Virus record (IMG/VR): IMGVR_UViG_3300047160_036266
Span: 279,422-343,421 of that record
Strand: one strand, 5' to 3'
Source of the DNA: a virus
Lineage: Duplodnaviria; Caudoviricetes
DNA: 64,000 nucleotides
The translations under genes and the position numbers were made by a program. Each line of letters starts with the position of its first letter. Position 1 is the first letter of the stretch. Below the pieces are notes generated by a model. It ran no database searches, was not told where the DNA came from, and saw only the letters and a program-made list of their open reading frames with translations. Below are positions 13,464 through 55,991 of the stretch, piece after piece.

Positions 13464-14196
13464 TTAACGTAATCGCATTCTGTAGGATAAAGCCCAGGTG
13501 ATCCACAGTCGGCGTAAACTGGTTCAAGGTCCAGGGGGCCGATATGTTGGCACTTGGGACGTAAACCGGCCCAGAGCTACTTAACCTGACTCCATTGATA
13601 AACACTCGCAAGCTGCCATCCATATACTGCGTCGGCAAACCCGTCGTGTAGTTCTGATAATTAGTGCTGACGGGCGAAACGTCATAATAGTGCCGATGGA
13701 TTGCGTCCACGGGGAACGCCAGTTGTGCCGAAACCTTATTCGGTGGCGTCACGACCCAGGTGATGGCCCACGACGGTTCAAGGACAATCGGCCCTTGATT
13801 GAACATGACGATGTTTGAGATCGTCTGCACGTCTATGGTCATGTTGGTCGCTTCATCATTGACCAACGCGAGTTTGTCCCGCTCGGCCTGCTGCATTCGG
13901 ACATAAGCAACGCTGTCCGGCCCAATGCCGTCCGTATGATAGCCGATATTGTGCAGGCAGTTATCAACTGCCGCTGGCTTGAGTGACCCGTCGCCGTTCA
14001 GCGACATGCCCAAGCGCTGCGCCAGCGTTGATTGCGTGCCTACCGAGTTTTGGATGTCGTTTTGAACGATGTCCACGGCGTCGTTGACAACCCCAATGCG
14101 GGTGATTAAAGCGTGCAACGGCAGGTTGTCGAAATCAACGTGGTACGGTTGAAGGGCATTATAAAGCGGTACAGGTATCAGGTCAAGTTCAGGCAC
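13423..14196 (-). CDS. Virion structural protein (257 aa)
   Basis: C-terminal GSLRVFINGVRL...TIRIDF beta module typical of phage structural proteins; GGAGG RBS. Confidence 0.65.
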   Translation of the reverse strand: MPELDLIPVPLYNALQPYHVDFDNLPLHALITRIGVVNDAVDIVQNDIQNSVGTQSTLAQRLGMSLNGDGSLKPAAVDNCLHNIGYHTDGIGPDSVAYVRMQQAERDKLALVNDEATNMTIDVQTISNIVMFNQGPIVLEPSWAITWVVTPPNKVSAQLAFPVDAIHRHYYDVSPVSTNYQNYTTGLPTQYMDGSLRVFINGVRLSSSGPVYVPSANISAPWTLNQFTPTVDHLGFILQNAITLNDTIRIDFDIALS

Positions 14197-44919: not shown

Positions 44920-46653
44920 ATGAGAACCAAATTTGAAGAGTATCTGTTGTTCAAGGAAGCCGAAGAAAACGGCGATTCTGACAATCATCACGGTGATTCG
45001 GACAAGCATTACGGTGATTCTGACAAGCATCACGGTGATTCTGACAAGAAGAGTGATGGCGGCGGTTCGTCCGGGGGCAGCGCGAGCGGTCCCGGCGACG
45101 AAGTTAGCCAGAAGGCCAAGTCGCTCATCACATCGAAAATCAAGTTGCAGAAGAAGGAGGGCAGCAACGAGTTCGCTCCGTTCACGGTGGACCGTGCCAG
45201 CCATCCGAACCTGCGCTACCTCATTAAAGCATTTGCAGATTCCGATAAAGTCGGCCTTGGTTATACCACTATTGACAAGACCAAGGGCGAAATGGAGCCG
45301 ATGCTAAAGAAAAAGACGCTACACCTTACCGGCGGGGCTGTGCGTGACCACCTGAAGGGCAAAACCCCTCGAAATTATGATCTGGTCACGGATGCCACGC
45401 CAAGTGAAATGCGCATGATCCTATCCAACCCCGAACACGGTTTTACGGAAGTCCAGCCCCGTGACCCAAAGTTGGCCCAGGATGAGCGCTATCATGAGCT
45501 ACCTCCAGCGGGTAGCAGGAACAAAGTCTTCTATCCAAGCCGCTGGGATAAACAGGGCAAGGAACTTGAATTCACGGTTGAAATCAACGGGGAGAAATTT
45601 GATCTTGCTACCCTATCCAAACACTCGAAGAGTCGCCGGGTCAGCCCGGATAAAGGCGAGTCCGCATCTTCCGTTGAGGAAGATTCCCTAAACCGGGACT
45701 TCACCATCAACGGCATGTATATCCCGCTCAACCAAAGCGATGGAGAGAACTCCGACTTGGTGGACCCACATGGCGGTGCCCACCACCTGAAAAATGGTGA
45801 GGTCGTCGCCATCGGGAGCCTGATTGACAAGCTGCGGGCTGATCCTTCAACCTCACAGCGATATGTCAAGATGCTGAGCCGCTTCGGCAACCCGGACAAG
45901 ATTCCAGACAAATATAAGGCCACCATCGAGCGATACAAGGACATGCAGGATGTGGACAAGGGCCACGTCCGCAAGGAATTCCTTTCCGGCCTCGAAAACC
46001 CCGACGTGGACCCACGCAAGTATCTGGGTGCCTATAGCAAACTCGGTCTAATGGGAGCGGTGTTCCCCGGACATGACTTCAATCCCGACGAGATGCCGCC
46101 GGACTTCAAGGGCGACCGCTGGCTCGCACCAGCCTGGGTTCTTCGCAAAGGCGATCCCCAACAGGTTATGCAGATGTTAGTTGGCCAGGGCTGGTCCAAG
46201 CAGGAGGCCCAGGACATCACCCACCTGATAAAGATGGCTCAGTGGGCCGACAAGGGCTTCGACGCTGACCAAATGTACGATCTGAAGAACAGTCACAACG
46301 GCTTGACGAAAAACAAGCAGCGTGAGTGGATGCAGATGATCGGCAAGCAGGGGAACCAGTCCGATGCCTACTTTATGCACGATGACAAAGACCTTGCCAA
46401 GATGGTAGACGGCCCGGACGGGAAGAAGCAGATCAACCCCAAGTTCCACCAACACCTGGGCCGCACGCCCAAGCCGGGCGAGCTAGAGGGCGTCCGCAAG
46501 GACTTGTCCAAGAATCGCTTCGTGGACATGCTCAATAAGCTCAAGCATCATAAAGCCGGTGGCGAGGATAAGGACAAGGACAAGCCGTTCCCTTCTCACG
46601 ACTCTGAAGATAAGAAGCAGGAGTGGGTTTCCGTGGCGGCTTTCCGCTACTAA
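44920..46653 (+). CDS. Class II nucleotidyltransferase (CCA-adding/poly(A) polymerase family) with substituted catalytic motifs
   Basis: GGAVRD, PRNYD, EEDSLNRDFTINGM and LVDPHGG. Confidence 0.85.
   Translation: MRTKFEEYLLFKEAEENGDSDNHHGDSDKHYGDSDKHHGDSDKKSDGGGSSGGSASGPGDEVSQKAKSLITSKIKLQKKEGSNEFAPFTVDRASHPNLRYLIKAFADSDKVGLGYTTIDKTKGEMEPMLKKKTLHLTGGAVRDHLKGKTPRNYDLVTDATPSEMRMILSNPEHGFTEVQPRDPKLAQDERYHELPPAGSRNKVFYPSRWDKQGKELEFTVEINGEKFDLATLSKHSKSRRVSPDKGESASSVEEDSLNRDFTINGMYIPLNQSDGENSDLVDPHGGAHHLKNGEVVAIGSLIDKLRADPSTSQRYVKMLSRFGNPDKIPDKYKATIERYKDMQDVDKGHVRKEFLSGLENPDVDPRKYLGAYSKLGLMGAVFPGHDFNPDEMPPDFKGDRWLAPAWVLRKGDPQQVMQMLVGQGWSKQEAQDITHLIKMAQWADKGFDADQMYDLKNSHNGLTKNKQREWMQMIGKQGNQSDAYFMHDDKDLAKMVDGPDGKKQINPKFHQHLGRTPKPGELEGVRKDLSKNRFVDMLNKLKHHKAGGEDKDKDKPFPSHDSEDKKQEWVSVAAFRY
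44971..45054 (+). repeat. 4 x 21-bp coding repeat (GDSDxHH)
   Basis: ggcgattctgacaatcatcac / ggtgattcggacaagcattac / ggtgattctgacaagcatcac / ggtgattctgacaagaagagt. Confidence 0.95.
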
Positions 46654-49313
46654 CCCTTCTTCGTATATCCGGGCTGCCCCTCAAGGTCCAGAATGTGCAA
46701 CTCGTCCATCGCACGAGTGTAAGCAACGTATTTCGCGTTGGCTTCCTGTGCCAAGTCCTCTGGACGCTGGGCCTTGGGGTGCGGGAACTGGTCGTCGCGC
46801 AGAATATACACCCTGCTGAACTCCAGTCCTTTTGACTTGTGGGCCGTCGTCAGGATGACGGGATTCTGCTCCTCGACCTTCCGGCGATATTCATTCAGAT
46901 CGCGCTCGTTCTCGGCTACATCCAGACCCGACAAATTGGCCTTCAGCCAGGCTTTGAACTGGCTGATCGTCTTTTGCGCCGGCCTGCGGCCTCGATCATC
47001 AGGGTAATCATCGCTCATCTCCGGGGCGAACATACCAATACAGTTCACCAACGCCTGGGTGGTATCCCGCAGTTCTTGCATCATCGCCCGCTTGGAGTTC
47101 GGCTGGCCCTGGTCCTCGAAACGGTCGTCTTCCTTTTGCTGGTGATCCTGCAACTTGTCCTTCAGGTCCGATATGGGCTGGTAATCGGTCGTACCCGTCA
47201 TGCGCATAATCTTGGCGATATGCTCCAACAAGTCCTTGGCCACGTCTTTGCCGACGATGATAAACGGCACCGCACTCGCCAGAAGCTTCAAGGCAGCGTT
47301 GACCAGCGGCTCGTTGGTCCGGGAGATAAACGCCGTGGGCTTGATATTGCCCTCCATTTTCTCCTTGCGCAACTGGCCGAAGGCGTCTTCGTATTTCAGT
47401 TCCTTGTGCGTGACCTCGCCCTCGCCGCCGTCCTTGAAGACCTTGCCCTGTTGCAAGTTGTTGACGTGAGTATTCTGGTTGGCGTAATCCAAGATGGCTT
47501 TGCGAGAGCGGAAATTCTTGGACAGGGTGAAAGGTTTCCAGCCCTCTTTATTGGCTGATAAGCCGCCCAACTGCTCGGCCAGATTATTGAAGGCGTCACC
47601 GTCAGCGCCCCTGAACCGATATATAGCTTGGTTGGGGTCGCCCACGGCCACTATTTTAGCGCCGGCATCATGAAGCTTCTTTAGGGCGATCTTCTGGTTC
47701 TCGTTGAAATCCTGCACTTCATCCGCCAGCACCACGTCATAATGCGGCCAGTGCAGTTCCTCGGCGTGGATGGAGGCATACCACAGGTCATCGTTGAAAT
47801 CCCGGAACTGCCCCATGTTGTATTCAAAATCATCCTTCTTCAAGACATGCTGCGAGGCGTGCGGGAGGGTTTCATCCAGCATCCACATCGTCGCCTGCAT
47901 CATCTCCTGCTTGTAGTTCTTCTTCATGAAGTCGTAGCCCAGGATGCGGCGCAGGTGGCCGGTGATCGTGGCATAGTAGCTGGGACTGTCGGCGTAACGG
48001 TCGATTCTCTCTTTCACGTCGCTCAGGCTGGTGTCGATGTCGTACTTGTCCATGACCTTCTCCAGCTTGGGCTGGACCTCGGCTTTATTGCGAGGATCGA
48101 GGGAATAGGACTTGGCCAGCCCCGTCAAGGTCAGGACTTCCTCCTTGAAAATATATTGCATCGAGTTGAGGATGCTGGTAAGCGTCTTCTTGATCTTGCT
48201 GTCGGCGGACACCATCTGGGCGGCATCCTTATTGGGAATGCCAAGGCTCTGGACCAATTGATTGAACTGCGGGGAATAGGTGGCGAGAATGCGGGCCTTC
48301 TCGATCATGCCCTTTTCGCCTGGGTGGTTCTTGCTAATCTCCACCGTGCGGCTCGTCTGGCGGATGCGGCCCTTGTTCTCCGGCGATCCAATCACCCTCC
48401 CCAAGAAGCCGTTGGTCGTTTCGACCTGCACCCATTGCGGAAACTTTTCTTTGGCCTCGACTTTGTTCTTGGTGTTGAAGACCAAATAGAGCCACTTCTG
48501 GCCGGGGTTGCCATATTTCCAGGCCAGGTGCTTGAGCATGGTGGTTTTGCCCGATCCAGCCAGGGCGTTAATCATGATGTGATCTTGGGTGCCGCCCTCC
48601 ATGATCTGCTTGAACTTCTCGTCAATCTGGCGCTGTTCGCTTTTCTCGCCGGGGGCGGTGCCGCTGTCCAGCATCTCGTCGGAGAGGATATGCTTGTTTC
48701 CTACGGGGCCGGCGGGGCTGGGCTTGGCCGGCTCTGGGGCCGGATCGGCATGGGGCCTGACGTGGGCCATAAGGTCTTCGATATTCTTGGACGTGATCGG
48801 CTGACCCGTCTCTTCGTCCTTGACGGACGTGACGATGTTCTTGACGGCCTCGCCAGGAATGATGGCGGTTCTCTTCTCGGCGTCCAGGGAGATCATCTCC
48901 CAGGAGGCGTCTTTTCGCTTGGCCAGGGCAACGTCCTGTCCGATGCGGAAACCCTGGGAGTTGTTGCCGGTGATTTTGGCCAATACCCAGGTTGGTCCGG
49001 CGGCTGGTTGCATGGAAGGTAAAGCCCTCGCTGGTGGACGCTCCTCCGGCGGGGGAGCAGCGGGTGGTTCGGGTCTTGGAGCAGGATGGGGAGCCGGTTT
49101 AGCAGCGGGCTTGGCTGCCCGACGCTTGGCTAGTTCCTCTTCAATTTCTCTACGGAATTCGGGGCTGATGAGTCCGGGATTATCGACGTTTTGCAAGGCC
49201 CAGGTCAGCCAGCCGCTATCAACTTCGCTGTGGTGCTTCCCTCGATGTTTGCCGAATCCAAACACACCCTCGTTCGTAAGGGTGAGCCAGCTTTTGAAAG
49301 TGAGTGTGTCCAT
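46650..49313 (-). CDS. UvrD/Rep-family SF1 helicase with an N-terminal extension and Pro-rich linker
   Basis: ALAGSGKTT, DEVQD, VGDPNQAIYRFRGA, LSKNFRS, TAHKSKGLEF and YVAYTRA. Start moved to 49313 because the longer ORF start crosses a terminator. Confidence 0.92.
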   Translation of the reverse strand: MDTLTFKSWLTLTNEGVFGFGKHRGKHHSEVDSGWLTWALQNVDNPGLISPEFRREIEEELAKRRAAKPAAKPAPHPAPRPEPPAAPPPEERPPARALPSMQPAAGPTWVLAKITGNNSQGFRIGQDVALAKRKDASWEMISLDAEKRTAIIPGEAVKNIVTSVKDEETGQPITSKNIEDLMAHVRPHADPAPEPAKPSPAGPVGNKHILSDEMLDSGTAPGEKSEQRQIDEKFKQIMEGGTQDHIMINALAGSGKTTMLKHLAWKYGNPGQKWLYLVFNTKNKVEAKEKFPQWVQVETTNGFLGRVIGSPENKGRIRQTSRTVEISKNHPGEKGMIEKARILATYSPQFNQLVQSLGIPNKDAAQMVSADSKIKKTLTSILNSMQYIFKEEVLTLTGLAKSYSLDPRNKAEVQPKLEKVMDKYDIDTSLSDVKERIDRYADSPSYYATITGHLRRILGYDFMKKNYKQEMMQATMWMLDETLPHASQHVLKKDDFEYNMGQFRDFNDDLWYASIHAEELHWPHYDVVLADEVQDFNENQKIALKKLHDAGAKIVAVGDPNQAIYRFRGADGDAFNNLAEQLGGLSANKEGWKPFTLSKNFRSRKAILDYANQNTHVNNLQQGKVFKDGGEGEVTHKELKYEDAFGQLRKEKMEGNIKPTAFISRTNEPLVNAALKLLASAVPFIIVGKDVAKDLLEHIAKIMRMTGTTDYQPISDLKDKLQDHQQKEDDRFEDQGQPNSKRAMMQELRDTTQALVNCIGMFAPEMSDDYPDDRGRRPAQKTISQFKAWLKANLSGLDVAENERDLNEYRRKVEEQNPVILTTAHKSKGLEFSRVYILRDDQFPHPKAQRPEDLAQEANAKYVAYTRAMDELHILDLEGQPGYTKKG

Positions 49314-49340
49314 GCTGGGATTATTTAGCACCGCAGGTGC

Positions 49341-49387
49341 AAAAAGAAAACCCCGGCGATCCCATTTCTGGAACCGCCGGGGTTTTC
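49341..49387 (-). terminator. Strong rho-independent terminator ending the candidate ncRNA
   Basis: GAAAACCCCGGCG-GTTCCA GAAA TGGGAT-CGCCGGGGTTTTC then TTTTT: 13 perfect pairs plus 6 pairs (two G.U) and a GAAA loop. Confidence 0.9.
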
Positions 49388-50215
49388 CCAGCAGATCAGT
49401 TTCCACACTCCGCACACGCGCTTTCGCGTTTGCTATGCAGAAGTACGAAGTGCGCCAATTGAGTCCGTCATCCTTTGGTGTTATTGCAGCTTTCCACAAG
49501 GTATGTCTGCCTGCTCAGGCCATTTGGACCCGCCGCTGACCCTGTGGCGTGACAGTATGAGGTTTGCGAACGGCTTGCACCTTCTCACTCCCTTGGGGTT
49601 TGAACGCCGGTTCCTACTTCTGCCCAACGCTTTGCAGCGTCATGCGTCCCATAGCACCACCAACGCCCTTGCCTTACGGTCGCTCCTCGGCTCTTGCCGT
49701 CACCTTGACCCCATACCCTCCTCATCTTAACGCCGGAGGAGTAGCGTCGTTTCGTGGGCGGCTTTTTGCGTGCCGCCAGGCTCAGCACCGATATGCTCGC
49801 TCGCCAGCGATGCTCCGTTAATGAGCGGAGGGCTTTTCAGCGGGGCACTGCTACTCCCCGCCGTATACCCCTCGGTGCAACCAGGACTCTCGCATCCACC
49901 GCTCAGGCACCCTTTTGGGGCGGCGTTCCTAAGCGTTCATCAGGACACCTGTTGCGGCCTATTTACCCCCTGCCCATTTCTGGTCAAAGGGCTGCTTAGC
50001 CACCATCCTGGTTCCGACTGCCTGCCGTGGTTTCCCGGATCAAATCCCCCTCCAGAGCAAGTCTTGAAGGTTTCATCTCCCCGTTGTGCCGAATAGCACT
50101 CCCTACCCTCGGTCTTGGTTTTCGTCTCGGCGGGATTTTTCACCCGTCCGATTGCCCACGGCCTTCCCGTTTCCCCGCCCCCTTTCCAGAGAGCGGGCGG
50201 ACTCGTCAACCCGGT

Positions 50216-50238
50216 TGTCAAAGAGCAAGGCTCTCACC
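50216..50238 (-). promoter_or_regulatory. rrn-type antitermination leader (boxB-like hairpin plus boxA)
   Basis: GGT-GAGA-GCC (50238-50229) immediately followed by TGCTCTTTGACA (50227-50216), 11/12 identical to the E. coli boxA TGCTCTTTAACA. Confidence 0.75.
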
Positions 50239-50251
50239 GTTGCATGATCTT

Positions 50252-50280
50252 CTTTTACTGCACCCTGCCGAAGTTGTCAA
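50252..50280 (-). promoter_or_regulatory. sigma70-type promoter for the candidate ncRNA
   Basis: TTGACA (50280-50275), 17 nt, TAAAAG (50257-50252): perfect -35, weak -10. Confidence 0.55.
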
Positions 50281-50307
50281 CCCCGTTTTACGTTTTCTGC
50301 GGAGAGG

Positions 50308-50336
50308 TTTACAACTGTCGCATCCTCTAGTATAGT
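50308..50336 (+). promoter_or_regulatory. sigma70-type promoter, probably giving a leaderless RNA-ligase mRNA
   Basis: TTTACA, 17 nt, TATAGT, with the ATG 7 nt later and no SD. Confidence 0.7.
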
Positions 50337-50343
50337 AAGTACC

Positions 50344-51063
50344 ATGAAGTCCGACAAGAGCCTACTCCCGGAATTTCCACGAACACGCCACCTGCCGTAC
50401 AAGCCCAATGCTGTGCGGGACGATCTGGTGGCGTCGGAGGATGATTGCGCCGTAATCTTCACCCTGGCAACCGTTTACGTCGAGGAGAAAGTGGACGGGG
50501 CCAACAGCGGCATGATGTTCTATGAGGACCGCCCCATAATAAGAAACAGGAGCCATGTGCTGAACAAGGGCTACCTGAAGGACACCCCGGCCAAGGTCCA
50601 GTTCCGCCCGATCTGGAACTGGTTTTATCAGAATAAGAAGTCCTTCGCTGATATAAACCGCATGGCGGGCGGTTCCGTGGGAATATATGGGGAGTGGATG
50701 TACGCCCTGCACGGGATCGAGTACGACCGGCTGCCCGACTGGTTCATCGCCTATGATGTCTACGACCCGGAGGCAGGAAAGTTTCTGGACACGGCCAAGG
50801 CCCGCCATCTATTGGAGGCGGCTGGCTTCCAGACCACGCCCTTCCTCCACGGCGGTCCCGTCGAAAGCTGGGAGCAGCTAGAGCGGTTCTGCCACGAACC
50901 CTCGGCGTTTTCTGGCAAGGACCGGCGGGAAGGGGTTTATATCAAGGTGTCGGACGGGCGATTCACCACCCACCGTTTCAAAATGGTGCGGGGCGATTTT
51001 ACCCAGGGATGCAAGTGGAACGAGAAGAGGATCACCAAGAACCAACTCTTCAAGGGGAAATGA
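50344..51063 (+). CDS. ATP-dependent RNA ligase (Rnl2-like nucleotidyltransferase domain)
   Basis: FPRTRHL, EEKVDGAN (KxDG), YGEW, FIAYDV, EGVYIK and KMVRGDF. Confidence 0.88.
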   Translation: MKSDKSLLPEFPRTRHLPYKPNAVRDDLVASEDDCAVIFTLATVYVEEKVDGANSGMMFYEDRPIIRNRSHVLNKGYLKDTPAKVQFRPIWNWFYQNKKSFADINRMAGGSVGIYGEWMYALHGIEYDRLPDWFIAYDVYDPEAGKFLDTAKARHLLEAAGFQTTPFLHGGPVESWEQLERFCHEPSAFSGKDRREGVYIKVSDGRFTTHRFKMVRGDFTQGCKWNEKRITKNQLFKGK

Positions 51064-51064
51064 C

Positions 51065-51511
51065 ATGGCCGATCACTGGCGCGAAGTACGGGTGACGTTT
51101 CTGGCGGACCACGAGGACACGACGACTGCTCAGGATGAGGACAGTCCGGTGATGGTCTTCTGGAAGAGCGACACCTTCTACGCTGAGGTTCAGGACCAGG
51201 GCGAGGACTGGCGGATGCACGTTCTCGACCAGGAAACCGCCCTGGAATGGTACGACGTTCCCAAGAACAAGGTCCGCATCTTGCCGGTTGATTACTATAC
51301 GGCGGACGTGACCTTCCTGAAAGAATGGCAGTTCACCACGCCGGATGACACCGAACTGACGGTGGAACGCCACGAAACCTACGAGGCGGGTGTCGTGGAT
51401 GACGGCACCGAAACCGTGGACTTGCTGCTCAACGCCCTGATGCGGCCCATCAACCAGATCAAGCAGGTGCCACGGAGCATTTTGCGGGTGGCACGAAAAC
51501 CGGAGGATTGA
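51065..51511 (+). CDS. Acidic hypothetical protein (148 aa)
   Basis: Tightly packed in the operon. Confidence 0.75.
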   Translation: MADHWREVRVTFLADHEDTTTAQDEDSPVMVFWKSDTFYAEVQDQGEDWRMHVLDQETALEWYDVPKNKVRILPVDYYTADVTFLKEWQFTTPDDTELTVERHETYEAGVVDDGTETVDLLLNALMRPINQIKQVPRSILRVARKPED

Positions 51512-51512
51512 C

Positions 51513-52010
51513 ATGGCTGGGACCATACTGACCCTGGAACGCAAGCGCATCGACCGCCACCGCCTCTATGGGGTGGTGGTGGCCGAGTCGGATCAGTTGA
51601 TGTTGCTGCACCAGAACGACGACTTCCAGTTCGACGGCTATGTGGTCGTCCGCAAGAAGGACATCACCAAGAGCCTGACCTCGGAGGGCACCGACCACTG
51701 CATCGCCATCATGAAGAAGGAAGGGCTGTGGGAGCCGGTGCCACGCAGCGTCAAGCGGCTGCCGGTCGATTCCTGGGGCAGCCTCCTGAACCGCTTCGTG
51801 GGCAAGGTTGTCATCCTTGAGGCCGAGTGGACGGACGACTTCTACATCGGCCCCGTGCTGGAAGTCCAAAAGAACGCCGTCGTCATCGACTATATTGACT
51901 GCTGCGGCAAACGCATGGGCGAGGAGAAGATTTCCTTCCGGCGTATTACCCAGGTGCGCTTCGGCGGTCGTTATGAAACGATGCACGAGAAGTACATGGA
52001 GAAGGAATGA
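51513..52010 (+). CDS. Hypothetical protein (165 aa)
   Basis: GGAGG RBS; tight packing. Confidence 0.75.
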   Translation: MAGTILTLERKRIDRHRLYGVVVAESDQLMLLHQNDDFQFDGYVVVRKKDITKSLTSEGTDHCIAIMKKEGLWEPVPRSVKRLPVDSWGSLLNRFVGKVVILEAEWTDDFYIGPVLEVQKNAVVIDYIDCCGKRMGEEKISFRRITQVRFGGRYETMHEKYMEKE

Positions 52011-52282
52011 AGGCTTGCGAACTAAGAATCGGTGACAGGGTGCGGATCACCGCCATTCCCGGCGAAGGTGTACCCAATTACACACTCCACCGGGAAACCC
52101 GGCAGGTCTACCAGAAGATCATCGCCCGGAAGCGCTCGGTGCGCATTTCGGAAATTGATGAGGATGGGCAGCCCTGGTACACCGTCAAGTTCCGGCGCAA
52201 GAATGGGAAGTGGGAGGAACACGTCCTCAATATCATGGACAGCGACACCAATTGGGTGCCTGTTAAAAGAAAGGTCAAATGA
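52007..52282 (+). CDS. Hypothetical protein (91 aa, SH3-like beta composition)
   Basis: ATGA coupling at both ends. Confidence 0.75.
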   Translation: MKACELRIGDRVRITAIPGEGVPNYTLHRETRQVYQKIIARKRSVRISEIDEDGQPWYTVKFRRKNGKWEEHVLNIMDSDTNWVPVKRKVK

Positions 52283-53001
52283 AAATATACAAGGAACACC
52301 ACAGCTTCGCCCCCGTCCTTCGGGACCGCTTCGCCACCGTGATTACCATTACCGATGAGGATACTCTGGAGGCGGCGAGCCATTATGATAATGCTTGCTG
52401 TCTCAATTTCGCTTCGCACAAGCGGCCTGGCGGCGGTTATAAAGCCGTGCAACATATACCCATGCCCATCAAGACTCAGGAGGAAGACCTTTTCCGGCGG
52501 TCCAACTTACCGGATATAATGGACACCAAGCAGGTCCGCCAGCACTACCCGCTTACCGGCGTGGAGGGTATCTATTGCGGCGGCGTCCAGGTCGAGCGGG
52601 ACAACAAGCTGGTGGCGCACGACCCTTATACGGTGTCGGTTATAACCGTGCCGGCGGTCGTTAATCCCCAGCCAGAACAAAAAGGTCTGGTCCGGGACAA
52701 GGTGAGGCGAATTTTGGAAATCGCCGCTGAGCAAGGCCATGAGGTATTGATCCTGGGTGCTTGGGGCTGCGGCGTTTTCAACAACGACCCGGAGGAGATC
52801 GCCGGGTTGTTCCTGGGCTTCCTGGTCGGTGAGTTCCGGGGCGTGTTCAGCGAGGTAGTCTTCGCCATCCCCGGCAAGGAAAGCCGGAACCACAAATTGT
52901 TTGTATCGGTGCTTCATGAGACTGTATACTCGGCCCAAGTCAACCCTGTCCAAATACCGGAGGCGGAAGCTCGCCCTGGAGAAGACACGCCAGTGGCTTG
53001 A
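52279..53001 (+). CDS. TIGR02452 / bacterial PARG-like macrodomain (ADP-ribose glycohydrolase)
   Basis: LNFASHKRPGGG, TQEEDLFRRSNL and LILGAWGCGVFNNDP. Confidence 0.88.
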   Translation: MKIYKEHHSFAPVLRDRFATVITITDEDTLEAASHYDNACCLNFASHKRPGGGYKAVQHIPMPIKTQEEDLFRRSNLPDIMDTKQVRQHYPLTGVEGIYCGGVQVERDNKLVAHDPYTVSVITVPAVVNPQPEQKGLVRDKVRRILEIAAEQGHEVLILGAWGCGVFNNDPEEIAGLFLGFLVGEFRGVFSEVVFAIPGKESRNHKLFVSVLHETVYSAQVNPVQIPEAEARPGEDTPVA

Positions 53002-53227
53002 GCAATACCACGCACCGAAGGAACCGCCAGCGGAACCCCGCAAGGAACACAAGAGGACCAAGCCGGACCCAAAGGAACAAAAGTCCTTCTACCGCCGCCA
53101 ACAGGAAAAGGGCTGGCGGGCGCAGAACGAAGAAGATTACTACACGCCCACGCAGCAGGAAATGACCAAGATTTTGACGGTCGCAGAGGCCCTGGCCCTG
53201 CTCGACCGAATGGGGGAGAACGCATGA
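52916..53227 (+). CDS. Basic hypothetical protein (~103 aa)
   Basis: Fills the gap and couples to the next gene by ATGA; overlaps the PARG 3' end. Confidence 0.55.
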   Translation: MRLYTRPKSTLSKYRRRKLALEKTRQWLEQYHAPKEPPAEPRKEHKRTKPDPKEQKSFYRRQQEKGWRAQNEEDYYTPTQQEMTKILTVAEALALLDRMGENA

Positions 53228-53850
53228 GCAACGTCAAGATCACCGACATGCAGAAGAAATGGCTCGGCCTGCCCGAACCAACCTTCTGCAACGGCAAGAA
53301 GAAGCTCAAGCTCTGGGACTTCGACGGCACGCTCTATAACTCCCCAGACCGTGCCGAAGGGGAGGTTCTGTACCTGGAGGGAACGGGTAAGGAGTGGCCC
53401 TTCGGCGGCTGGTGGGGTCGTATTGAAACTCTCATGCCGCCCATCATCCCCGATCCGCCGCCACGGGACAGGCTCATTCTCTGGACCTACGAGCAATACC
53501 TCCAGGCCAAGGCCGACCCCCAGGCTCATAACGTCCTGCTCACCGGGCGTCCCTACAAGAACCGCCAGCGGGTCCAGGCCATCCTTGCGCACTTTGATAT
53601 TTCCTTCGATGAGGAATATTACCGGGGGATGCGGGGCCTCGACGGACACGATACCTTCGAGATCAAGTGCGGCATCATCGAGAACCGCCTGGTCAGTAGC
53701 CGCCTCGAAGAGATCGACCTGTGGGAAGACCGCCCCGAACACACCGGGCCGTTCACGGCCTTCCTCGGTCGCCTCAAGTCCAAGTACCGCAATACTTTGC
53801 GTAGGGCCGTGGTGCATGACGTGCCTAACCAGGCGCATTACGAGGTTTAA
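53224..53850 (+). CDS. HAD phosphatase, Swiss Army Knife RNA-repair-like family
   Basis: WDFDGTLYNSP, WW, LLTGR and LWEDRPEH. Confidence 0.85.
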   Translation: MSNVKITDMQKKWLGLPEPTFCNGKKKLKLWDFDGTLYNSPDRAEGEVLYLEGTGKEWPFGGWWGRIETLMPPIIPDPPPRDRLILWTYEQYLQAKADPQAHNVLLTGRPYKNRQRVQAILAHFDISFDEEYYRGMRGLDGHDTFEIKCGIIENRLVSSRLEEIDLWEDRPEHTGPFTAFLGRLKSKYRNTLRRAVVHDVPNQAHYEV

Positions 53851-53881
53851 TCCCCCGGATTTTTAGTATATAATCCGGGGG
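53846..53881 (+). promoter_or_regulatory. sigma70-type promoter with its -10 inside a 10-bp inverted repeat
   Basis: TTTAAT, 17 nt, TATAAT (53869-53874); CCCCCGGATT (53852-53861) / AATCCGGGGG (53872-53881). Confidence 0.6.
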
Positions 53882-53885
53882 TGTT

Positions 53886-54209
53886 ATGACATACGAGAAT
53901 TATCGGAGGCTGATTCGTCTATTGCGTCAACAGTGCCCGGCGGCGTTTCCGGTGACGGTACGCCGGGTTCGTCTCAGGGACAAGGACGGGGACTGTTCCA
54001 AGAAGGATAGTCGTTTTCTCATCCGCATAAACAAGGAGTTGGGGGAAAGCGGGTCCATCGACGCCCTGTTGCACGAGTGGGCGCACGCACGGGCGTGGAA
54101 CCATTTGCATGACACTTGCGACCATTCCGAATTTGAAAAACGGGTGCATGACGCATCGTGGGGCGTGGCCTATGCGGAAGTGTACCGAATATTTGAGCAG
54201 AACTTCTAA
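53886..54209 (+). CDS. Small HExxH metallopeptidase-like protein (SprT/ImmA-like)
   Basis: DALLHEWAHA. Confidence 0.65.
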   Translation: MTYENYRRLIRLLRQQCPAAFPVTVRRVRLRDKDGDCSKKDSRFLIRINKELGESGSIDALLHEWAHARAWNHLHDTCDHSEFEKRVHDASWGVAYAEVYRIFEQNF

Positions 54210-54502
54210 TGAAAAACCTGACCGTTGACGGCGGCTCGCCACCCCCGACCCTGATGGGGCTGGTGGAGGAAGTGTTCAAGAGCGGTACGCCGGAGGAGGC
54301 GTTGGCCCTGGCAATGCAGTGGCTCTATGCCAAGAAGCTCCAGGGCAACCCCCTGCAAGACAAAATCAACAAATGGAAACAACATTGGGGTCCAGTGACA
54401 CAGCAGAAGGTTCTGAACTTCGTCCGGGACCATGAAATGGACGCCGAAATTGTTTCCCGGCTGGCGATCCCTGTTGTCACTCGATGCAAGGTGGATATAT
54501 GA
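54209..54502 (+). CDS. Hypothetical protein (97 aa)
   Basis: TAATG and ATGA coupling. Confidence 0.7.
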   Translation: MKNLTVDGGSPPPTLMGLVEEVFKSGTPEEALALAMQWLYAKKLQGNPLQDKINKWKQHWGPVTQQKVLNFVRDHEMDAEIVSRLAIPVVTRCKVDI

Positions 54503-54777
54503 AACCGATGTCTTACCGGCAACTTCAACGCTTTTCTGACAAGGTATCGCCCTGGGTGGGCCAGACGCCAGGTGTGGCCGGTACGGGTATCCAGTTGGAC
54601 GAAGGCCACGTTGATACCTTTGTCATTTACTTGGAACATAAAATCGAGGACAATATAAAGAGTGACCTGCTCGCCCGGTTGCAACAGGCGGCTCCCAAAG
54701 ACCGGGAGTTGCGTGTTCTGTGGCAAATAACCGGGAAGATGGAGCTTCAAGAGAAAGGAAGGAAAGATGCTGATTGA
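54499..54777 (+). CDS. Hypothetical protein (92 aa)
   Basis: Start moved to the ATGA overlap. Confidence 0.7.
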   Translation: MKPMSYRQLQRFSDKVSPWVGQTPGVAGTGIQLDEGHVDTFVIYLEHKIEDNIKSDLLARLQQAAPKDRELRVLWQITGKMELQEKGRKDAD

Positions 54778-55531
54778 CCGAGTGACATTCACCGGGGCGG
54801 ATGATTCTGTGACCCCCGCACAGTTGGCGCGTGTTCAGGAGGAATGCCCCCGGATCGAGTGGGGCATCCTCCTCAGCAAAAGCATGGAAGGCAAAGGAAC
54901 TCGGTTTCCCAGCCGCAACTGGCTCGACAACCTTGCCAAACGCGAAGTATACTTGCCTATGCTTAGCGGCCACCTGGGCGGGCGGTGGGTACGCGAACTG
55001 ATCGCCGGCAGGTTTACCTACCGTGAGGAGCGGCCCAACCACTTTGCCATTTGGCACCGGATGCAGTTGAATTTCCACGGCGAGCGGCTGGAGCCAGTCG
55101 AGGCGTTTTACTGGCAGTTGGCGTCTTGCCACGATGAGAAGACGTTCATCTTCCAGATCGACGGCGTGAACGACTGGTTGTACTACGCCCCCGACGAGCC
55201 TTCGGACGACCCACGGGCTGTGCAGGGCGGGGCAATGGCCCACGGCCTCAACGCCCTGCCACTCTTGGACAACAGCCACGGGGAGGGGCTGCTACCGGAA
55301 CGGTGGATTCCCATACCACACCGGGAAGTCCTGACGGGCTATGCCGGCGGGTTGGGTCCGGCGAACCTGGCCGACGAACTGAAGCGGATCGAGGATGCCG
55401 TGGGCGAAGGCGTTATCTGGATTGACTTTGAAACCAGGGTCCGTAGCGATGACGACATCTTGTTCGACCTGGACAAGTGCCGCCGTTGCTACGACATCGC
55501 CCAACAATGGCTTCGCCCAAAGGAGGAGTAA
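54767..55531 (+). CDS. Phosphoribosylanthranilate-isomerase-like TIM-barrel protein (phage type)
   Basis: VTFTGADD, LLDNSHGEG, GYAGGLGPANL and WIDFETRVRS. Confidence 0.7.
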   Translation: MLIDRVTFTGADDSVTPAQLARVQEECPRIEWGILLSKSMEGKGTRFPSRNWLDNLAKREVYLPMLSGHLGGRWVRELIAGRFTYREERPNHFAIWHRMQLNFHGERLEPVEAFYWQLASCHDEKTFIFQIDGVNDWLYYAPDEPSDDPRAVQGGAMAHGLNALPLLDNSHGEGLLPERWIPIPHREVLTGYAGGLGPANLADELKRIEDAVGEGVIWIDFETRVRSDDDILFDLDKCRRCYDIAQQWLRPKEE

Positions 55532-55532
55532 C

Positions 55533-55991
55533 GTGGCATTACGAGATGAACTGCGTTCCAAGCTGACCCAGGCGATGAAGGGCAAGGACGAGCAGGCGAA
55601 AAACCTGCTCCGTCTGGTTATTGGGGAGGTTGATACGGTTGACGCCCGCCAGGGCAAGTGCGCCGACGAGGCGGCGGACACCCAGCGGATTGCCGGCGTC
55701 ATCAAGAAGATCATGGAGGGCAATGCCGAAACCATCCGCCAGATCGGCAAAATCCTCGACCCACGGGTGCATCAGTTGATCCAAGAGAATTCCTATCTCA
55801 AGCAACTGCTGCCGCCCACGCTGTCAGACGAAGAGCTTCGCCCCATCCTGGCGGAAGTGGCCGACAATATCAAGTCGGCCAAGAATGAAGGCCAGGCTAC
55901 CGGAATCGCCATGAAGCATCTGAAGACCAAGGGTGTGGCCAACGCCGAATCGAGCATGGTGATCGCCCTGGTCAAAGAACTGCGGGGGTGA
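55533..55991 (+). CDS. yqeY: GatB/YqeY-domain protein
   Basis: GTG start after AAGGAGGAG; LTQAMKGKD...LLRLVIGE...LKQLLPPTLSDEEL...GIAMKHLK. Confidence 0.85.
   Translation: MALRDELRSKLTQAMKGKDEQAKNLLRLVIGEVDTVDARQGKCADEAADTQRIAGVIKKIMEGNAETIRQIGKILDPRVHQLIQENSYLKQLLPPTLSDEELRPILAEVADNIKSAKNEGQATGIAMKHLKTKGVANAESSMVIALVKELRG

Follow-up and report, generated by a model that had tools for sequence, protein, structure and literature searches.

The final 64,000 nt of the IMG/VR virus record IMGVR_UViG_3300047160_036266 (343 kb; CheckV completeness 69%), hereafter the window, carry a cluster of RNA-repair-type genes that surrounds a self-contained gene for a large, well-folded and apparently abundant non-coding RNA (ncRNA). 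The source is a giant soil phage, because the sequencing runs that contain the window are soil metagenomes. An earlier sequence-only reading had placed the RNA between a helicase gene and an RNA ligase gene, inside an RNA end-repair neighbourhood, and had proposed either a tRNA-repair kit co-regulated with the RNA or a ribonucleoprotein system dedicated to it. Every gene named in that reading was found at its place, and the ~1-kb gap between helicase and ligase proved to be non-coding and to hold a structured RNA. Its interpretation held in part: the end-repair kit was supported, whereas co-regulation of the RNA with the enzymes, or its dedication to them, was not. Phage morons, known from the lambdoid phages, are autonomous promoter–gene–terminator cassettes that lie between other genes. 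We consider it somewhat probable (roughly 55%) that the region is a layered accessory region rather than one co-evolved system, in which an RNA-repair toolkit hosts an autonomous, moron-like ncRNA cassette in a divergent control region.

We compared the window with the other members of the RNA-bearing sub-lineage, namely L035 (its closest relative), L011 with its copies, and L038, and with L030, a close relative that lacks the RNA. The gap (49314-50343) contains all three kinds of stop codon in six of six frames and lacks the codon-position GC periodicity that is present in both flanks. An alternative genetic code was rejected for the gap, because stops of the TAA, TAG and TGA types all occur in every frame; indels among the RNA variants are not multiples of three, consistent with a non-coding sequence. 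The elements found on the minus strand (Table 1) form a transcription unit with a promoter, a boxA leader and a strong terminator. The −10 hexamer of the promoter-like site is degenerate, without T at the last position, and the site was not listed by a consensus promoter scan; its hexamers are kept in the window, L035 and L011, with a variable spacer. The boxA, TGCTCTTTGACAA, is identical in the same three loci; within the 64 kb of the window, no other site comes as close to the E. coli consensus (one mismatch or none; 0.02 expected). It would lie near the predicted 5′ end of the transcript, ~20-30 nt past the putative start and ahead of the long untranslated RNA. At the other end, the terminator is kept in four variants with compensatory changes and stops 26 nt ahead of the helicase ATG at 49313, so that the helicase indeed follows the RNA terminator directly. 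On the ligase side, the −35 hexamers of the RNA and of the ligase operon stand back to back exactly 27 nt apart, the distance given in the sequence-only reading, with a weak −10 on the RNA side; the ligase promoter-like site is kept in L035, L011 and L030.

Folding, conservation and covariation establish a structured RNA on the minus strand. The fold z score against shuffles was −2.7 for the minus strand versus −0.2 for the plus strand. A homologue of the RNA occupies the same site in L011 and is 84% identical in pairwise alignment, where the flanking helicase and ligase proteins are 67% and 71% identical. The two-sequence consensus fold reached −317 kcal/mol, compared with −190 ± 8 for column shuffles that retained the conservation pattern, and contained 28 compensatory pairs versus 11.6 ± 2.3 in the shuffles; the corresponding plus-strand fold reached −218 kcal/mol. 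In a four-sequence alignment (window, L035, L011 and L038), compensatory change was seen in 43 of the 246 predicted pairs. The RNA also contains long invariant blocks, and its 5′ and 3′ regions are predicted to pair with each other in the consensus fold.

A boxA at the 5′ end, together with a helicase gene on the same strand just past the terminator, would fit an RNA that acts mainly in cis, as an antitermination leader that loads a Nus/boxA complex for read-through into the helicase and beyond. We hold this to be very unlikely. The unit ends in a strong, conserved intrinsic terminator whose stem pairs covary, and its ~900 nt, 246 predicted pairs and long invariant blocks far exceed the needs of a leader. 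Furthermore, in L035 the terminator is separated from the helicase start by a 274-amino-acid (aa) open reading frame (ORF) that runs on the opposite strand and has no Pfam match (L035:6777-7601), and in L030 the helicase gene, although frameshifted, stands at the same place without the RNA. According to the layered reading, the RNA is probably transcribed early by the host RNA polymerase with rrn-type antitermination and appears to accumulate to a high level.

Expression data came from two small libraries of one study, labelled metatranscriptomic (X2 and X4; 121 and 188 Mb). Contigs identical to the window reached a depth of 873 over 49417-50090 and of 240 over 49477-50052 (runs X2, X4), these being per-contig depths in runs chosen for containing this stretch; identical-sequence contigs on flanking phage genes in the same runs had depths of 2-10, and two DNA runs gave a flat depth of 2-6. 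The comparison suggests that the RNA is very abundant. Against it stands the annotation of the X2 and X4 libraries, which were produced by random PCR and are flagged 'RNA? (probably DNA)', and the way in which depths and runs were obtained weighs in the same direction. None of the sequencing runs found to contain the window is recorded as RNA, and 17 RNA-Seq runs from soil or aquatic samples, which shared only 0.04 of words, were counted as no evidence. The contig ends (49417/50090 and 49477/50052) are probably assembly-graph branch points at blocks common to diverged relatives present in that run, not RNA ends. No circular or back-joined RNA junction was seen among the assembled contigs, which cannot exclude one; the only joints came from diverged relatives. 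In run X2, a 666-nt contig of depth 14.5 matched the RNA only at 49518-49620, 49772-49838 and 50101-50165, skipping 151 and 262 nt between these segments. Because this contig matches three conserved segments only, we conclude that the environment contains diverged members of this RNA family whose variable domains differ.

Pattern scans, a six-pattern degenerate scan of JGI metagenomes and profile searches together yielded just four distinct sequences of the RNA, all syntenic at one site in one narrow sub-lineage. L035-L038 were recovered when a pseudo-ORF translation of the RNA was used as a probe of metagenome contigs; alignment of the pseudo-ORF with a 5.8-billion protein set gave no match. 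Scans of viral contigs with conserved RNA blocks returned the contig of L011 and chance matches only, and the first such scan of genome contigs was empty. A 21-mer match in a metagenome-assembled genome of Methanomassiliicoccales, among the genome contigs, was treated as chance, since the covariance model did not confirm it. A covariance model of a 164-nt core (R1) found nothing in G001, G004, G005, G006 or any RNA-less locus, blastn of the RNA against G001-G003 gave chance-level matches only, and blastn and megablast against phage records gave no match. No Rfam family reached its gathering score in the window, and no relevant match was obtained at E≤10 in 49300-50500; specifically, the Rfam covariance models of GOLLD, ROOL, OLE, HEARO, group I/II introns, RNase P and tmRNA did not match the RNA. 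ARAGORN found neither tRNA nor tmRNA, and no tRNA-like element was seen in the RNA. A tRNA mimic was also considered and rejected: the RNA contains a T-loop-like GTTCAAACC, but no stem flanks it and L038 does not conserve it.

The relation of the RNA to its neighbours was clearest in L030, where the gene order is the same without the RNA (ligase 74%, o446 88%, HAD 80% and SprT 88% identical). The helicase and ligase starts of L030 are 219 nt apart. When this empty site was aligned with the filled site, the flanks were conserved up to GTTGTAAA (window 50308) and from GCTAAATA (window 49329), and L030 had ~19 nt at the place of the ~980 nt of the window, which comprise the unit from promoter to terminator. 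Since the alignment sets ~19 nt against a complete unit, the RNA gene behaves as a discrete cassette. Conservation of the neighbourhood, which the sequence-only reading had named as a check on its proposal, thus did not tie the RNA to the gene order, given that L030 keeps the order without it.

The layering became apparent when the window proteins were mapped onto 11 IMG/VR loci that carry relatives of the nucleotidyltransferase (NTase) encoded beside the helicase. In L012-L021, whose NTases are 53-65% identical to that of the window, the NTase gene is followed directly by those for HAD and SprT, and these loci lack the entire helicase-to-PARG block (46650-53001). G004 and G005, the records to which they belong, contain no helicase or ligase orthologue and no RNA detectable with the 164-nt core model. 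The backbone genes therefore occur without helicase, ligase or RNA, contrary to what a dedicated set would lead one to expect. As an island, helicase, ligase, small ORFs and PARG were seen only in L030 and in the RNA-bearing loci (the window, L035, L038 and L011 with its copies). We propose that the region consists of three layers: a conserved backbone that would comprise the NTase, a Swiss Army Knife (SAK)-type HAD 3′-phosphatase and a SprT-like protein; an island that would have been inserted between the NTase and HAD genes of one sub-lineage and would comprise the helicase, the ligase, small ORFs and a PARG-like macrodomain protein; and the ncRNA, which would be an autonomous moron-like unit, present or absent as a precise ~980-nt indel in the divergent control region of helicase and ligase. 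Co-occurrence of the RNA with ligase, helicase or NTase across independent lineages was not observed, the RNA being known from one lineage. Because the RNA is found in one narrow sub-lineage and always at the same site, a single insertion or deletion would account for its constant adjacency to the ligase. As far as comparison of the relatives can tell, there was no sign of dependence between RNA and enzymes.

The ligase is a minimal ATP-dependent enzyme by its family signature (Table 1), with 99.9 bits against a cut-off of 27 for PF09414. Motifs I, III, IV and V are intact (E48-K49-x-D51-G52, E117, E196-G197...K201 and K213, invariant in 33 homologues), and the AlphaFold2 model is a single domain with a predicted local distance difference test score of 94. 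In Foldseek searches with this model, the best matches were Naegleria Rnl5, T4 Rnl2, REL1 and Pab1020 (archaeal Rnl3), which suggests an Rnl5/Rnl2-like fold; these matches cover just the NTase domain of targets of 335-340 aa, and profile matches to PDB sequences were marginal (E 1e-4 to 1e-2). Neither the C-terminal accessory domain of Rnl2 nor the N-terminal OB domain of Rnl5 is present. The protein belongs to a large, uncharacterised family of ~240-aa phage proteins, with 451 relatives at E≤1e-10. The ligase had been described as apparently leaderless, and a leaderless mRNA is plausible in the window, because the ATG follows the −10 by 7 nt (50336-50346), as it also does in L035. In L011 a 21-nt insert with AGGAGG, i.e. 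a Shine-Dalgarno leader, precedes the ATG (14082-14110), and the leader of L030 is ~150 nt. Since the leader differs among relatives, the fine regulation of the ligase is not conserved.

Elsewhere, ligase relatives adjoin an AAA_33 kinase (L002), a tRNA_bind protein and an aminoacyl-tRNA synthetase (L048), or PcfJ, PTH2 and a second ligase (L050 and L051), and in L003 a tandem ligase is accompanied by a Band_7 protein. No large non-coding gap was found in the ligase contexts L002, L003, L031, L032 and L048-L051. These contexts support a putative role in RNA (tRNA) repair that would be independent of the ncRNA, and the wide occurrence of the ligase family without the RNA lends no support to an RNA co-regulated with, or dedicated to, the enzymes. 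In L031, L032 and L049, a UvrD-type helicase gene lies on the same strand 0.1-3.4 kb upstream of the ligase relative, a recurrent pairing that hints at an association of the two genes. An intein (Pfam Intein_splicing) is present in the helicase of L031 (L031:3567-6860), whose ligase relative is 65% identical. In L049 a Clp_N protein is encoded between helicase and ligase; the window has a Clp_N protein downstream.

The helicase of the window had been assigned to superfamily 1 (SF1). The family assignment stood, with the correction that the protein is of the DNA-helicase type: beyond its Pfam domains it matched phrog_1967 'DNA helicase' (E 7e-72) and has a Walker A motif, ALAGSGKT, at residue 250. 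Its ATG at 49313 is conserved in L035, L011 and L030, and the open frame continues upstream to a TTG at 49499. Peptide patterns of the helicase found no relative among viral contigs. The helicases of L038 (4972-7590) and L011 (10288-13020) are only 43% identical, whereas the adjoining RNAs are 89% identical, suggesting that the helicase was replaced by another allele or diverged very fast. This disparity bears on the idea of a dedicated ribonucleoprotein, in which the ligase would circularise or join the RNA, the helicase remodel it and the NTase add a tail. Physical adjacency and the predicted pairing of the 5′ and 3′ regions are all that favour such a particle, which we regard as highly improbable: its helicase would be a DNA-type enzyme that diverges beside a conserved RNA, its NTase is short of one catalytic Asp and belonged to the backbone before the RNA was there, L030 has the gene order but no RNA, and the contigs gave no sign of back-joining or circularity.

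The NTase had been called CCA-like, and this was true of its PolyA_pol head domain (68.9 bits versus a cut-off of 23) but not of its catalytic site. GGAVRD is present; the catalytic DxD reads NYD (GYD in L019) and RRD reads NRD in all nine aligned relatives, and the NCBIfam CCA and PcnB models scored far below their cut-offs. The protein is thus CCA-enzyme-like rather than a CCA-adding enzyme. Because NYD and NRD are kept in relatives down to 53% identity, they represent a stable catalytic-site variant and not a pseudogene.

For the PARG-like macrodomain, the Swiss Army Knife HAD and YqeY, the proposed identities agreed with Pfam, PHROGs and NCBIfam (Table 1). The HAD protein has a D32-F-D-G-T (DxDxT) motif, and phrog_415 'polynucleotide kinase' matched over the phosphatase part. 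The microbial-type PARG signature is GGG-X(6-8)-QEE; in the protein encoded here GGG and QEE are both present, 13 residues apart. The true start of YqeY is probably later than annotated, which would give ~158 aa, as called in relatives. The content of small ORFs after the ligase varies among close relatives. A search of 1.8 billion representatives gave the 148-aa ORF (51065-51511) just four relatives; two of these, at 2358 and 1421 aa, are giant proteins and align with it in 6-8 repeated stretches. The protein atlas gave no lead for this ORF, and no ligase is encoded on the 2.3-kb contig of one relative, P0124.

A ligase paired with a 3′-phosphatase had been likened to T4 tRNA repair. The ligase motifs and the DxDxT of the HAD protein agree with that logic, but no 5′ kinase is adjacent: no P-loop kinase was found in 41.5-57.7 kb of the window. 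Far from the window, the same genome (G000:C1) encodes a KptA/Tpt1 2′-phosphotransferase, an AAA_33 P-loop kinase-like ORF (~240 kb from the neighbourhood) and a second PF09414 ligase. Taken together, the ligase motifs and fold, the HAD motif, the contexts of ligase relatives, these distant genes and the RNA-repair section of a published survey of jumbo phages (PMC7824862) favour the RNA end-repair kit of the sequence-only reading. Judging from family membership, the island proteins, KptA, the P-loop kinase and the second ligase would most likely form a dispersed toolkit for the healing and sealing of RNA (tRNA) ends.

Could the RNA nevertheless belong to the pathway of this kit? It might be co-regulated with the ligase operon and act as an abundant decoy or sponge against RNA-cleaving defences of the host that the ligase re-seals, or as a scaffold for broken tRNAs and enzymes. 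We regard this as possible, though unlikely. The back-to-back promoters in the window, L035 and L011 speak for it; each resembles a sigma-70 site of the host and may therefore be active early. The apparent abundance of the RNA would suit a decoy, and the modelled ligase fold appears most similar to that of ligases that seal nicks in structured RNA. L030 itself, which is without the RNA, also has a broken helicase and a broken NTase. However, RNA-less L030 has kept its ligase, PARG and HAD genes intact, the ligase family is widespread without the RNA, which is confined to one narrow lineage, and the RNA has no tRNA-like element. The variable ligase leader is likewise not what tight co-regulation would predict. 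A more elaborate form, in which the RNA is the partner of the repair module, a very abundant, nuclease-exposed decoy or platform for RNA-cleaving host defences that is produced by way of host rRNA antitermination and kept intact by the ligase with the assistance of helicase and NTase, and in which L030 records a co-loss, is decidedly unlikely in our estimation. The evidence gathered here did not reveal a tie of the RNA to ligase, helicase or NTase.

Several observations, besides the reservations about the X2 and X4 libraries, weigh against the layered region with an autonomous cassette. In L030 the helicase gene (L030:2686-7782) has 13 in-frame stops and the NTase gene three frameshifts, and ~9 kb of neighbouring genes are intact; these frameshifts reflect either real decay or a local assembly error. 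Real decay would mean a joint loss of RNA, helicase and NTase, and would hence speak for a link between them. The RNA and ligase promoters stand back to back at all RNA-bearing loci, so the two may be co-regulated, and since a UvrD-type helicase lies 0.1-3.4 kb from this type of ligase in three other contexts, helicase and ligase may cooperate. Finally, the roles assigned to the proteins follow from family membership.

Table 1. Features of the RNA-bearing region (window positions unless G000:C1 is given) and distant repair-type genes of the same genome.
Feature	Position	Strand	Evidence or remarks
Class-II Pol-beta NTase (CCA-adding-enzyme/poly(A)-polymerase-like)	44920..46653	+	PolyA_pol E 6.5e-19; tRNA-nucleotidyltransferase phrog_2244
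UvrD/PcrA/Rep-like SF1 helicase, 887 aa	46650..49313	−	Pfam UvrD-helicase PF00580 and UvrD_C PF13361 above cut-offs
Intrinsic terminator, hairpin and U-run	49338..49389	−	19-nt inverted repeat, 4-nt loop; hairpin 49346-49387
Structured ncRNA, ~900 nt	49340..50245	−	Putative ends, from promoter and terminator; 49417-50090 under high-depth contigs
rrn-type boxA TGCTCTTTGACAA	50215..50227	−	12/13 bases as in E. coli rrn boxA; small hairpin precedes
RNA promoter-like site	50252..50280	−	TTGACA (50280-50275), 17-nt spacer, TAAAAG
Ligase-operon promoter-like site	50308..50336	+	TTTACA, 17 nt, TATAGT; 10/12 consensus positions
Minimal ATP-dependent RNA ligase, 239 aa, adenylyltransferase domain only	50344..51063	+	PF09414 E 2.3e-28
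Three small ORFs (148, 165, 91 aa)	51065..52282	+	No Pfam, PHROG or NCBIfam match
Microbial-type PARG-like macrodomain	52279..53001	+	PARG_cat_microb (PF10021) E 9e-14; TIGR02452 101.9 bits vs 50
HAD phosphatase, stand-alone 'Swiss Army Knife' (HAD_SAK_1)	53224..53850	+	PF10307 39.2 bits vs 25.6
SprT-like small protein	53886..54209	+	Pfam SprT-like E 2.5e-4, below cut-off; beside HAD in L012-L021
GatB/YqeY-domain protein	55395..55991	+	PF09424 E 9e-11; phrog_1460
KptA/Tpt1	G000:C1 108852-109349		
AAA_33 ORF	G000:C1 86787-87080		
Second PF09414 ligase (475-aa open frame)	G000:C1 193282-193968		

The protein set resembles the RNA-repair kits of jumbo phages. In its RNA-repair section, the survey of Iyer, Anantharaman, Krishnan, Burroughs and Aravind (2021, PMC7824862) lists Rnl families, stand-alone Swiss-army-knife HAD proteins, a CCA-adding enzyme, KptA and Macro. 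An Rnl-type ligase, a stand-alone HAD, a CCA-type NTase, Macro-type ADP-ribose processing and KptA are thus shared with the kits described there, as are a polynucleotide-kinase-like P-loop protein and many phage tRNAs. By contrast with those kits, the components are here dispersed over >200 kb with no local kinase, the NTase reads NYD and the macrodomain is of the PARG type (TIGR02452); an unclassified 900-nt RNA gene is embedded among them, of which that section of the survey makes no mention. T4 Pnkp with Rnl1/Rnl2, which repairs tRNA against PrrC-type anticodon nucleases, likewise combines a HAD/DxDxT 3′-phosphatase with an ATP-dependent KxDG ligase. In the present phage, however, kinase and phosphatase are unfused, the kinase is not adjacent and the 239-aa ligase is without the C-terminal domains of Rnl1/Rnl2. 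The ligase shares its NTase motifs with Rnl5 (Naegleria gruberi NgrRnl, Deinococcus DraRnl) and T4 Rnl2 (Foldseek E 7e-8 to 1e-6), at a query-normalised template modelling score of 0.5-0.6 and an identity of just 15-18%, and differs from them in having neither the N-terminal OB domain of the former nor the C-terminal domain of the latter.

The RNA can be compared with three known kinds of element. Like an rrn leader, which bears a boxB hairpin and a boxA for NusB/NusE, it has a boxA with 12 of 13 bases and a small hairpin ahead of it, followed by a long untranslated structured RNA; unlike an rrn leader, it heads a phage RNA and not an rRNA, has a weak −10, and its use of Nus factors is a prediction from sequence. 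With the structured RNAs GOLLD and ROOL (PMC12286853) it shares its large size (~0.9 kb), a multi-domain architecture, carriage by phages and long invariant blocks, but it had no Rfam match even at E≤10 and does not lie beside tRNA genes. It shares with morons the precise presence/absence indel, with its own promoter and terminator, between two backbone genes; it differs in that the cargo is an ncRNA instead of a protein gene and in that the event can be read as an insertion or as a deletion.

The protein set is, in summary, another jumbo-phage RNA-repair cluster of a known kind, in which the ~240-aa single-domain ligase family, the CCA-enzyme-like protein minus one catalytic Asp and the occurrence of a PARG-type macrodomain are details worth noting. 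The novel element is the embedded RNA: unclassified, structured, ~900 nt long, headed by an rRNA-style boxA leader and apparently carried as an autonomous cassette. The region also cautions against inferring function from adjacency where that adjacency may have arisen in a single insertion event. That the RNA is separable from the enzymes around it narrows where its function should be sought.

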